The notes under the pieces were generated by a model, which saw only the letters and a list, made by a program, of their open reading frames with translations, ran no database searches and had not been told where the DNA came from. From IMG/VR virus record IMGVR_UViG_2778261454_000004: a stretch of 4,372 nucleotides of DNA; one strand, 5' to 3'. How positions within the stretch are numbered: position 1 is the first letter of the stretch; every line of letters begins with the position of its first letter. Of this stretch, positions 284 through 3,883 are shown piece after piece. A program made the translations under genes and the position numbers. The DNA comes from a virus (lineage: Duplodnaviria; Heunggongvirae; Uroviricota; Caudoviricetes).

Positions 284-499
284 ATGAAATCCATGGATAA
301 GTTAACAACGGGCATCGCCTACAGCACCTCTGCAGGCAGTGCTGGCTACTGGTTTTTACAGTTGCTCGATAAAGTCACGCCCTCACAGTGGGCGGCAATA
401 GGTGTATTGGGTAGTCTGGTATTTGGCATGCTGACGTATCTGACAAACCTTTATTTCAAGATTAAAGAAGACAAGCGTAAGGCTGCATGGGGAGAGTAA
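284..499 (+). CDS. essQ: Class II pinholin, phage 21 S-type, 71 aa with dual start (antiholin from ATG 284, holin from ATG 293)
   Basis: Translation [71 protein letters not shown]. Two predicted TMDs: a Gly/Ala/Ser-rich SAR-like TMD1 and a hydrophobic TMD2, then a charged C-terminal tail. The Met-Lys-Ser-Met N-terminus is the classic holin/antiholin dual-start motif. GGAGG at 267-271 sits about 12 nt upstream of ATG 284. The listed ORF 191-499 begins at an in-frame TTG; 284 is the first ATG. The Qin-paralog symbol is inferred from the neighbouring cspI/ynfN/gnsB/ydfO context, not from a search. Confidence 0.85.
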
Positions 500-503
500 T
501 TCA

Positions 504-818
504 ATGACTCAAAAATATGAACTGATTGTGAAAGGGATCCGCAATTTTGAGAATAAAGTTACGGTAACTTTAGCGTTACGGGACAAAGAACGCTTTGACG
601 GTGAAATTTTTGACCTGGACATCTCGCTGGACCATGTTGAAGGTGCCGCGCTGGAGTTTTATGAGGCAGCAGCCAGAAGGAGCATCAGACAGGTCTTCCT
701 GGATGTTGCTGCCGGGTTATGTGAAGGGGACGAGCTGTTGCCAGAAACGCGACCCTGTTCAGAGGCTCGGTATACCATAAAAATTAACAGTTCAGATAAC
801 TCGATTACGGGTTGTTAG
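504..818 (+). CDS. ydfR: YdfR-like protein of unknown function (DUF1327-type), 104 aa, between holin and endolysin
   Basis: Intact ORF starting 4 nt after the holin stop, with GGGGAGAG (490-497) 6 nt upstream of ATG 504. Acidic, no predicted TM segment. The position between the holin and lysozyme genes matches the Qin-type lysis cassette as I recall it. Function unknown. Confidence 0.7.
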   Translation: MTQKYELIVKGIRNFENKVTVTLALRDKERFDGEIFDLDISLDHVEGAALEFYEAAARRSIRQVFLDVAAGLCEGDELLPETRPCSEARYTIKINSSDNSITGC

Positions 819-873
819 CTTTTTGCAGTTGGCTTTCCAGTATCTTTCATTGGTAGCATCCTGATAAATATCC

Positions 874-1901
<1,028 letters not shown>

Positions 1902-2160: not shown

Positions 2161-2262
2161 TTTATTATTTGTACCTCTTGAGATTTCCTTGTTGGTTTTT
2201 CTCTCTGATATTTTTTTCGGACCATTCTGCCCAAGGGCTAATTTCTTCAAAAGGTAATAATT

Positions 2263-2475
2263 ATGTCTAACAAAATGACTGGTTTAGTGAAATGGTTTAA
2301 CCCTGAAAAAGGTTTTGGTTTCATCACGCCGAAAGATGGCAGCAAAGATGTGTTTGTCCATTTCTCAGCAATTCAGAGCAACGATTTCAAAACATTAACT
2401 GAGAATCAGGAAGTTGAATTTGGTATTGAGAACGGACCTAAAGGTCCTGCCGCTGTTCATGTAGTGGCGCTTTGA
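2263..2475 (+). CDS. cspI: Cold-shock protein of the CspA family (CspI), 70 aa
   Basis: Translation [70 protein letters not shown] carries the cold-shock-domain RNP1 (KGFGFI) and RNP2 (VFVHF) motifs. The AAGGTAATAATT-ATG initiation region resembles that of cspA. Preceded by a long AT-rich leader. Confidence 0.93.
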
Positions 2476-2563
2476 GGTAGACAATATTACAAACCATATT
2501 CACTTTAGATGCCCGTGTTGTCATGGTTCCCAGTATAGAACATCATCTTTTGATGTTTCTGAC

Positions 2564-2674
2564 ATGAATCCTTTCGGGGCAAAATGTATCTTTTGTAAAT
2601 CAATGATGATTACATTTGATAATATTTCACAATACTTAAATGCCAGCCGTCTGTCGTTGGATTTAAAAAAGTGA
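2564..2674 (+). CDS. Possible small zinc-ribbon-like ORF or gene remnant; only the ATG-initiated 36-aa part is annotated
   Basis: The frame is open from 2465 to stop 2672-2674 and reads ...CPCCHGSQYRTSSFDVSDMNPFGAKCIFCKSMMITFDNISQYLNASRLSLDLKK, i.e. two Cys pairs (CPCC and CIFC) about 22 residues apart. No ATG, GTG or TTG lies upstream of ATG 2564 in this frame, so the first Cys pair has no canonical start. Below the length cut-off of the ORF track. Confidence 0.25.
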   Translation: MNPFGAKCIFCKSMMITFDNISQYLNASRLSLDLKK

Positions 2675-2679
2675 AAATG

Positions 2680-2702
2680 AAGGCTCCTTCGGGAGCTTTT
2701 TT
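2680..2702 (+). terminator. Intrinsic terminator: GC-rich hairpin with UUCG tetraloop followed by a T-run
   Basis: Stem AAGGCTCC (2680-2687), loop TTCG (2688-2691), stem GGAGCTTT (2692-2699) with one G-U pair, then TTTTTTG; six T at 2697-2702. Lies about 200 nt after the cspI stop and before ynfN. Confidence 0.75.
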
Positions 2703-2820
2703 GCTTGGTGTCTATTCGATGGATACTCACATACTACGGTAACATCATGAAAAAAATCATAGTTTTTTTAACTCTGAACCAGCAGTGGTAGTGCCAGCGA
2801 TGACTGGAGTTAACACCATC

Positions 2821-2976
2821 ATGCGTGAATATCCAAATGGCGAAAAAACACACCTTACTGTAATGGCCGCAGGGTTTCCATCTCTGACCGGAGATCATAA
2901 AGTCATTTATGTAGCCGCGGATCGACATGTTACTTCAGAAGAAATTCTGGAAGCAGCAATAAGGCTCTTGAGTTGA
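2821..2976 (+). CDS. ynfN: YnfN-like small protein, 51 aa (alternative start ATG 2800 gives 58 aa)
   Basis: Translation MREYPNGEKTHLTVMAAGFPSLTGDHKVIYVAADRHVTSEEILEAAIRLLS. Length and position (between cspI and gnsB) match my recollection of the Qin-prophage cold-shock-induced gene ynfN. GGAG at 2806-2809 is 11 nt upstream of ATG 2821. Start choice is not verified. Confidence 0.6.
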   Translation: MREYPNGEKTHLTVMAAGFPSLTGDHKVIYVAADRHVTSEEILEAAIRLLS

Positions 2977-3093
2977 TTTGATGCTATTGCATTGATAATT
3001 CAGGAAAATTCTCTTTGTCTGTTTGTGTAAAATTTAGACTATCGTATGTTGATTATTGCGATGTTTCATCTTATCTTTTACACGTTTGCACCA

Positions 3094-3099
3094 TATAAT
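3094..3099 (+). promoter_or_regulatory. Candidate -10 hexamer (TATAAT) for gnsB
   Basis: Perfect TATAAT at 3094-3099, about 48 nt upstream of the gnsB start. The -35 is weak: TTATCT at 17-bp spacing, or TTTACA at only 11 bp. Confidence 0.3.
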
Positions 3100-3147
3100 C
3101 GACTTACTGTGTAACTGGAAAGTCATAACAGACTAAAAGAGGAAATG

Positions 3148-3321
3148 ATGAATATTGAAAACTTAAAAACAAAAGCAGAAGCAGATATTTCTGAATATAT
3201 AACAAAAAAAATTATTGAACTTAAGAAAAAGACCGGGAAAGAAGTTACCAGTATTCAGTTTACCGCACGGGAAAAAATGACGGGTCTTGAAAGCTATGAT
3301 GTCAAGATTAATTTAATCTGA
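3148..3321 (+). CDS. gnsB: GnsB (GnsA/GnsB family small protein), 57 aa
   Basis: Translation MNIENLKTKAEADISEYITKKIIELKKKTGKEVTSIQFTAREKMTGLESYDVKINLI closely resembles the GnsA/GnsB sequences I recall (MNIEELKK...TGKEVSEIRFTAREKMTGLESYDVKIKIM). AGAGGA at 3137-3142 is 5 nt upstream of ATG 3148. An additional in-frame ATG at 3145 would add one Met. Confidence 0.85.
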   Translation: MNIENLKTKAEADISEYITKKIIELKKKTGKEVTSIQFTAREKMTGLESYDVKINLI

Positions 3322-3347
3322 TGTATTCAATAATAAAATTTATCCAT

Positions 3348-3370
3348 AAACCTCGTTTTTACGGGGTTTT
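3348..3370 (+). terminator. Probable intrinsic terminator downstream of gnsB
   Basis: AAACCTCGT (3348-3356), loop TTTT, ACGGGG (3361-3366), then TTTTGTT. The stem has one G-U pair and is followed by a T-run. Confidence 0.5.
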
Positions 3371-3435
3371 GTTATATTTGAATGGTTCCGAATATCTAAA
3401 TCACAATTGTTGATGGTTTTTATTAAACCAATGCA

Positions 3436-3464
3436 GTCCGGCTCAGGAGTGAGAGAAGCCGGAC
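3436..3464 (-). terminator. Hairpin just downstream of the ydfO-like gene (minus strand); possible weak terminator
   Basis: Perfect 8-bp inverted repeat GTCCGGCT (3436-3443) / AGCCGGAC (3457-3464) with a 13-nt loop, starting 9 nt after the minus-strand stop. The following minus-strand sequence (TGCATTGGTTTAAT) is only moderately T-rich. Confidence 0.35.
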
Positions 3465-3472
3465 GTTATGGT

Positions 3473-3883
3473 TTAGCGTGGTAAGATCTGTGTAGTTTTC
3501 TGGATGCTTTCAGTAAATAGTAATGAATTATCAAAGGCATAGTAATATCTTTTTTGTTCGTGGATATTTGTAACCCACCGAAAAACTCCTGCTTTAGCAA
3601 GGTTTCTTCTGTATTCCTGAAATGTGATCTCTCTGGATTTCAGCTTATTAGAGGTCGTTTCTATAAGATGCCTATCCTTTGAAAATTTGACAGACACAAT
3701 GTTTTTTAGGCCCTTTAATAACACTGTATTATCATTTTTTAATACAATATGAACATTCTCTGTGGCTAAATAGTAAATGTAATGTGAGACATTGTGACGT
3801 TTTAGCTCAGAATAAAACCATTGATAGTTTAAATCGTTTCGAACTTTATCAAATATTTGTTTAAAAATGACTACCTGATCCAT
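3473..3883 (-). CDS. ydfO: YdfO/YbcV-like protein, DUF1398 family, 136 aa, function unknown
   Basis: Translation from [47 protein letters not shown]... matches the prophage YdfO/YbcV family as I recall it. Start set at ATG 3883 because GGAAGG lies 7 nt upstream on the minus strand; the listed ORF start at 3898 has no Shine-Dalgarno. Confidence 0.75.

Follow-up and report, generated by a model that had tools for sequence, protein, structure and literature searches.

We analysed a stretch of 4372 bases (the window) from the virus record IMGVR_UViG_2778261454_000004 and identified the 104-codon open reading frame (ORF) between its holin and lysozyme genes as an ordinary member of the already catalogued YdfR/DUF1327 family, the counterpart of b1555 in the Qin prophage of Escherichia coli K-12. 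The window itself comes from a lambdoid prophage of E. coli of the Qin type. The best explanation for the gene, to which we give a probability of about 0.4, is that YdfR would be an accessory late protein with RNase E and/or RNA association as its molecular activity. This explanation was ranked first because it has the sole direct functional evidence, which maps to the conserved core of the family. The gene and the family were known before; added here are the boundaries of core and tail, the ribosome-binding site (RBS) shared with the holin gene, the occurrence of natural cassettes that have or lack ydfR, and a connection to the RNase E data. YdfR is under purifying selection and occupies the most tightly coupled position of the pinholin cassette. 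Matches to it occur in roughly 78% of the complete E. coli genomes and in many Shiga toxin (Stx) phages, yet it has no assigned role.

The ORF and its protein family

Sequence, composition and hydropathy agreed with the first-pass annotation of the window, which had described an intact, acidic 104-codon ORF with a Shine-Dalgarno (SD) sequence, 4 nt past the holin stop, and a product that lacks a transmembrane (TM) segment and ends in Cys. The ORF starts with ATG at 504 and stops with TAG at 816-818. The product of 104 aa contains 19 Asp and Glu and 13 Lys and Arg residues (pI 4.75) and has cysteines at positions 73, 85 and 104, the last being the C-terminal residue. No TM segment was assigned because the maximal 19-residue Kyte-Doolittle hydropathy is 0.75, far under the 1.6-2.3 found in the neighbouring membrane proteins.

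A profile search, which the same annotation had proposed, matched the protein to PF07041 (DUF1327) at 132.1 bits, above the cut-off of 25 (E 8.6e-39), and aligned residues 1-96 with positions 1-90 of the 93 in the profile. An end-to-end match was obtained to phrog_2735, a family of unknown function (E 4.2e-54, residues 1-104 on a profile of 105 positions). PHROGs divides the family into five groups, and four further PHROGs share the N-terminal core only. A search of NCBIfam gave no hits. The annotation's remark that the family has no described function needs correction, as DUF1327/YdfR and PHROG 2735 are catalogued, the K-12 gene is named, and a paper of 2026 connects the protein with RNase E and RNA. 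The low E-value for DUF1327, a ratio of nonsynonymous to synonymous substitution rates (dN/dS) of 0.22-0.33 in the core, and the intact copies in plaque-forming phages point, far beyond chance, to a genuine gene. Such copies were found in mEp460, BP-4795 and many Stx-converting phages.

Many E. coli chromosomes contain the target region at 100% identity, and 4255 of 5426 complete E. coli genomes (78%) have some match to it, at up to 8 places per genome. An exhaustive phmmer search over 1.84 billion cluster representatives returned 60 proteins at E <= 0.001. A word-indexed search gave 259 proteins, and all those with a named source came from Escherichia, Shigella or Salmonella; the taxonomic range is very narrow. 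The family has two core subtypes, 'MTQxYEL...' and 'MKKKYEL...', with approximately 50-57% identity between them. Two giant proteins, P0149 (3128 aa) and P0151 (2356 aa), each aligned with the 104-aa query in 6-8 phmmer stretches (E ~1e-8 to 1e-9). They were rejected as homologues, being adhesins with Ig-like repeats (G2F, Big_9, cadherin-like) and no DUF1327 hit; their matches, judged with the alignments uninspected, are most likely compositional and due to V/T-rich beta strands. Two contigs from metagenome-assembled genomes labelled Veillonella parvula and Bacillota bacterium carried an E. coli-type Qin lysis cassette with holin 89-92% and lysozyme 92-94% identical to those of the window, and are probably mis-binned enterobacterial prophage contigs.

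Structure prediction, also suggested in the first-pass annotation, gave a confident AlphaFold2 (AF2) model of the core, with a mean predicted local distance difference test score (pLDDT) of 87.7 and a predicted template modelling score (pTM) of 0.73; the fold brought no functional assignment. The model consists of an antiparallel beta-meander of three strands (5-14, 18-27, 34-43) and one long helix (50-77). Across the family the core ends near residue 76, and the tails past it are unrelated, ranging from none to about 210 aa, so that whole proteins reach up to 287 aa. We picture YdfR as a small, presumably cytoplasmic soluble protein whose beta-beta-beta-helix core of ~76 aa is followed by a dispensable mosaic tail under little constraint. 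In comparison to the K-12 allele, nucleotide homology is lost at codon ~68-70 and regained only 14 nt before the lysozyme ATG, and because of this break the tail together with the spacer is a mosaic joint. The region past the YdfR core acts as an insertion hot spot. Long C-terminal extensions, coiled-coil-rich by eye, were seen in some DUF1327 genes (PhiR12_5, at 3001-3830 of locus L004; P0130, 287 aa; P0129, 206 aa).

The dN/dS values of the core given above were obtained from pairs that are well diverged, with dS above 1. The corresponding polymorphism ratio (pN/pS), taken over 40 unique alleles of the 104-aa type, was 0.47 in the core, 0.19 in the helix and 0.36 in the tail. In common genome pairs, dN/dS was 0.24-0.65 for the YdfR core, 0.07-0.15 for the holin and 0.03-0.15 for the lysozyme. 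These values argue for purifying selection on the YdfR core, with a constraint 2-8 times weaker than on holin or lysozyme.

Structural or sequence relatives assign no function to YdfR. Foldseek against viral predicted structures found nothing at E <= 0.001, and a sequence-profile search of the PDB returned only Rab GTPase matches at E >= 0.8, which were dismissed as noise. Likenesses to Rv1738 of Mycobacterium tuberculosis (PDB 4wsp), to double-stranded RNA-binding domains (dsRBD) and to Dip of phage phiKZ have in common a generic beta-beta-beta-alpha unit. YdfR does not combine the alpha-beta-beta-beta-alpha fold with the sequence-profile match that would make it a dsRBD.

Position and start site within the lysis cassette

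We examined 93 loci, comprising 5 phage records, 8 genomes and 80 viral contigs. Wherever the upstream region was present, ydfR stood behind an S21-type holin gene, and the ORF was intact with a conserved start in all 93; no DUF1327 gene was found beyond the slot between the holin gene (S) and the lysozyme gene (R). In nearly all loci ydfR began 4 nt past the holin stop; one locus had a gap of 3 nt, and in another (L088) the two genes overlapped by 8 nt. Holin identity across the loci was 75-99%. The lysozyme gene was at -4 nt from ydfR (the ATGA overlap of the K-12 type) or began about 50-63 nt or 319-370 nt past it. In a few loci holin or lysozyme was not detectable, and these were contig ends or decayed cassettes. 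Many ydfR copies lie in defective prophages.

In the window the holin stop TAA (497-499) is followed by the 4-nt spacer TTCA (500-503) and the ATG of ydfR, and the SD sequence GGGGAGAG lies within the 3' end of the holin gene. Since this SD is embedded there and shared, YdfR should be made together with the pinholin. The co-expression with lysis genes that the first-pass annotation had proposed is supported by this arrangement, by the slot kept in the 93 loci and by a promoter scan that found no sigma-70-like site near ydfR. As an accessory late gene, ydfR would share a transcript with the lysis genes, and its translation would start from the SD in the pinholin 3' end. 

The Stx2a phage PA2, which has no ydfR, carries the gene for a 177-aa lysozyme 4 nt past the holin stop, with an identical GGGGAGAG. 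Such a direct holin-lysozyme junction, with R on the same SD site, was present in 231 phage records. In phage 21 and cdtI, S overlaps the gene of a distinct 165-aa R21-type endolysin. In total the S21-type holin was found in 438 phage records and DUF1327 in 101; ydfR is therefore an accessory, optional gene, missing from approximately 77% of the phage records that have a holin of this type. Apart from ydfR itself, natural cassettes of the two kinds are near-identical in S and R.

Where ydfR is present, it takes the holin-coupled start and R is left without an SD. This suggests a separate effect in cis, namely that ydfR moves the lysozyme gene from a holin-coupled to an SD-less start, by which translation of R relative to S would be lowered and a lower R:S ratio expected. 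That this is all the ORF does, the protein being irrelevant and the sequence either kept as a spacer uncoupling lysozyme translation from the holin RBS or simply decaying with its prophage, seems highly improbable to us. The SD-less R, 55 nt away here and at -4 to +370 nt elsewhere, and the many copies in defective prophages are in line with it. However, the amino acid sequence is under purifying selection (core dN/dS as above at dS above 1, helix pN/pS 0.19), the intact ORF and conserved start in every locus extend to viable phages, and the core has a confident predicted fold.

The last 14 nt before the lysozyme ATG (860-873) are conserved and read CC-TGA-TAA-ATATCC. Both stops are out of the ydfR frame, and they look as if left over from the end of an upstream ORF in a different cassette variant.

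A different reading takes YdfR as passenger cargo, which the first-pass annotation had offered as an alternative; it would be moron-like, with a role outside lysis and RNA decay (host physiology, superinfection or anti-defence), its position reflecting linkage to a recombination-cold junction. We consider this unlikely. The weaker constraint, the mosaic and highly variable tails with extensions to 287 aa in total, the very narrow range (60 representatives among 1.84 billion proteins) and the fact that about three in four phage records with this type of holin lack the gene all agree with it. So does the tolerance of these cassettes to unrelated inserts: BP-4795 and PA2 have ant between R and Rz, and in PhiR12_5 the ydfR-R interval contains an antisense DUF1823 gene. 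In addition, a genome-wide antibiotic-survival screen reported a 3-fold higher streptomycin minimal inhibitory concentration with ydfR (PMC12924614). On the other hand, ydfR is strictly faithful to its position and never occurred outside the holin-R slot, and the promoter and terminator of its own that mark a moron were not found around it: besides the lack of a promoter-like site, the terminator-like hairpin with a T-run at the ydfR stop (795-826, + strand; dG ~-10 kcal/mol) was not significant (z = -1.8, with 13 of 200 shuffles folding as well). The PADLOC defence models gave no hit at E <= 0.1 for four family members, although that library would not hold anti-defence genes.

Candidate activities of YdfR

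The functional evidence comes from YdfR of K-12 (b1555, UniProt P76160), which belongs to the same family and lies in the same slot of the Qin cryptic prophage, essQ-ydfR-rrrQ-rzpQ/rzoQ-cspI, with the same 4-nt gap past the holin stop. The two proteins are near-identical in the core and 65% identical overall. The K-12 gene differs in encoding another, basic C-terminal tail, and its stop overlaps the lysozyme start (ATGA), in contrast to the 55-nt spacer of the window. 

In two-hybrid library screens with RNase G and RNase E as baits, fragment 1-72 of K-12 YdfR was recovered three times (Gopel et al. 2026, PMC13232886). This fragment corresponds to the conserved core and is near-identical in the window protein. 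YdfR was classed among the cytoplasmic proteins that touch only constructs containing the catalytic domain, and Rne(1-598)-FLAG was co-purified from lysate with Strep-YdfR (PMC13232886). Eluates of YdfR also contained DNase-resistant nucleic acid at 150-330 ng/ul, in comparison to about 10 ng/ul in the controls (PMC13232886). Based on these data we propose, as the most likely activity, that the YdfR core binds the N-terminal, catalytic half of RNase E, or RNA, or both. It may thereby influence RNA metabolism at a late stage of infection, for instance how stable late or host transcripts are or how well they are translated.

Several observations speak against this proposal. The full-length YdfR fusion was positive with Rne 1-597 only, the authors themselves allowed for a contaminating protein, overexpression of YdfR altered few transcripts and left the transcriptome nearly unchanged, and ydfR was silent in standard culture (PMC13232886). 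Furthermore, the RNase E and RNA data come from the K-12 protein, whose tail is basic, whereas the tail of the window protein is acidic. Our confidence is modest because the data are from one study, on a variant allele and outside phage development. Known phage effectors of RNase E act in distinct ways: T4 Srd binds the N-terminal half and stimulates the enzyme, while phiKZ Dip (gp37) binds the scaffold and inhibits it. Dip resembles YdfR structurally at noise level, in the beta-beta-beta-alpha unit. A change in RNase E activity is known for Srd and Dip, unlike the nearly unchanged transcriptome with YdfR.

A role of YdfR in lysis timing, suggested in the first-pass annotation, is plausible. 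In its defined form, YdfR would be a soluble cytoplasmic regulator, antiholin-like or restraining the SAR (signal-arrest-release) endolysin, that is stoichiometric with the pinholin, binds its cytoplasmic part or that of the endolysin, and delays or sharpens triggering; this we regard as somewhat unlikely. It would suit the invariant position and the tight coupling to the pinholin gene. There is a precedent in P1 LydB, an antiholin that lacks a predicted TM domain, with a gene overlapping the lydA stop by 4 nt and a mechanism that is unknown, and T4 RIII is presented as a cytoplasmic antiholin in PMC8385771. The resemblance to LydB is one of architecture only, both proteins being small, lacking a predicted TM segment, and encoded by a gene coupled to a holin 3' end in a phage with a SAR endolysin. 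LydB differs in its size (147 aa), its pI of 7.8 and its demonstrated lysis-delay phenotype, and LydA is a canonical holin, not a pinholin. The two are unrelated in sequence, and homology was rejected with hhalign (family profile against LydB: probability 0.1%, E 0.5). 

The supplement of Paradis-Bleau et al. 2014 lists the Keio deletion of ydfR as envelope-leaky in a screen with chlorophenol red-beta-D-galactopyranoside (CPRG) at 30 C in LB without salt, which would favour a part in lysis. However, the result is confounded because the ydfR stop overlaps the lysozyme start in K-12, and the leakiness could stem from read-through of the kanamycin resistance (kan) cassette driving the downstream SAR lysozyme gene. 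Further points against a timing regulator are that the holin encodes its own dual-start antiholin, that holins end in similar C-termini whether or not ydfR is present, and that most phages with this holin type do without the gene. The same YdfR allele (95-97% identical) was also found beside holin alleles of 76% to 99% identity, and no co-variation of YdfR subtype with holin allele, sought as a sign of interaction, was seen in the 93 loci. Under the RNase E and RNA proposal, YdfR would not be a lysis effector, and the pinholin/SAR-endolysin pathway could proceed without it. ORF52 of Salmonella phage BSPM4, a lysis-timing protein, was set aside from its description, as it belongs to a different phage and disrupts membranes.

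Taken further, pinholin/SAR-endolysin cassettes might encode a soluble accessory factor of a new class, defined by YdfR and produced alongside the pinholin, that tunes lysis timing either directly, as a TM-less antiholin, or through the RNase E catalytic half by setting the stability of late lysis mRNA; we think it doubtful that this will prove right. If YdfR does control lysis timing or RNase E late in infection, this would bear on burst timing and on the lysis-dependent release of Stx. As a lysis-tuning factor that most Stx1a and Stx2c phages carry and most Stx2a phages lack, YdfR could contribute to differences in toxin release. If YdfR does neither, it would be one more small accessory gene.

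Among toxin-converting phages, DUF1327 was common in those with Stx1a (41 records) and Stx2c (15 records), and the direct holin-lysozyme junction was dominant in those with Stx2a (117 records). The correlation between ydfR and toxin subtype may be a phage lineage effect. On viral contig L088, ORFs of 318 and 89 aa (2189-3424) lie directly upstream of the holin-ydfR-R cassette and look like the genes for Shiga toxin subunits A and B, judged by size, order and sequence read by eye.

Neighbouring genes of the window

The features of the window are collected in Table 1. A genome identical to the target region carries, in annotated order, a holin (essD/essQ type), 'YdfR family protein', rrrQ lysozyme, rzpQ, cspI, ynfQ, ynfR, ynfN, gnsB, ydfO and ynfO.

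Table 1. Positions of ydfR, its parts and the adjoining lysis features in the window.
Feature	Position	Strand	Basis
S21-type class II holin (pinholin), essD/essQ homologue	284..499	+	PF04971 (Phage_holin_2_1, P21 S family) 117 bits; PHROG holin families; alignment to phage 21 S
Shine-Dalgarno GGGGAGAG within holin 3' end, used by the following gene (ydfR in the window)	489..496	+	sequence; motif and spacing also in PA2, BP-4795 and K-12-type loci
ydfR-family gene (DUF1327), 104 codons + TAG	504..818	+	PF07041 132 bits; phrog_2735; 'YdfR family protein' annotation in 100%-identical genomes
Conserved core, codons 1-76	504..731	+	alignments; AF2 core model; dN/dS
Variable C-terminal tail, codons 77-104, predicted disordered	732..815	+	pLDDT below 50
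55-nt spacer ahead of lysozyme gene, no Shine-Dalgarno	819..873	+	only last ~14 nt (ATAAATATCC) common to other cassette types
rrrQ-type lysozyme, 177 aa, SAR-like N-terminal segment	874..1407	+	PF00959 (Phage_lysozyme); phrog_7 endolysin; hydropathy, catalytic motif
rzpQ-type i-spanin (DUF2514), 4-nt overlap with lysozyme stop	1404..1901	+	PF10721; phrog_312 Rz-like spanin
Embedded o-spanin, rzoQ-like lipoprotein, lipobox LTSC, +1 frame of rzpQ	1597..1851	+	ORF 1579-1851; phrog_11621 Rz-like spanin; K-12 annotation

The flanking genes had been labelled pinholin and SAR endolysin, and both labels appear reasonable. The holin has a dual start with the motif MKSM, in which ATG 284 would give a 71-aa antiholin form and ATG 293 a 68-aa holin form. 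It aligns with phage 21 S along its length, and the phage 21 holin is 84.5% identical to that of the window (tblastn). The N-terminal segment of the lysozyme is Gly/Ala-rich and weakly hydrophobic, and the enzyme has the catalytic motif E-8-D-5-T. The Pfam matches of both genes (Table 1) fit the labels as well. The start of the o-spanin was set at 1597 by analogy with the 84-aa K-12 rzoQ.

Further downstream, ynfN (2785-2976, + strand) is an intact 63-aa ORF with a GTG start, and is frameshifted by annotation in a genome 100% identical over the ydfR query. The ORF presumably contains the whole 51-aa frame of K-12 YnfN (MREYPNG...), for which the K-12 gene length alone was checked. The long 5' untranslated region of cspI (2118-2502, + strand) matched the Rfam cspA thermoregulator RF01766 with 114 bits. 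Because this exceeds the gathering score of 78, the prophage cold-shock gene cspI carries a full cspA-type RNA thermosensor.
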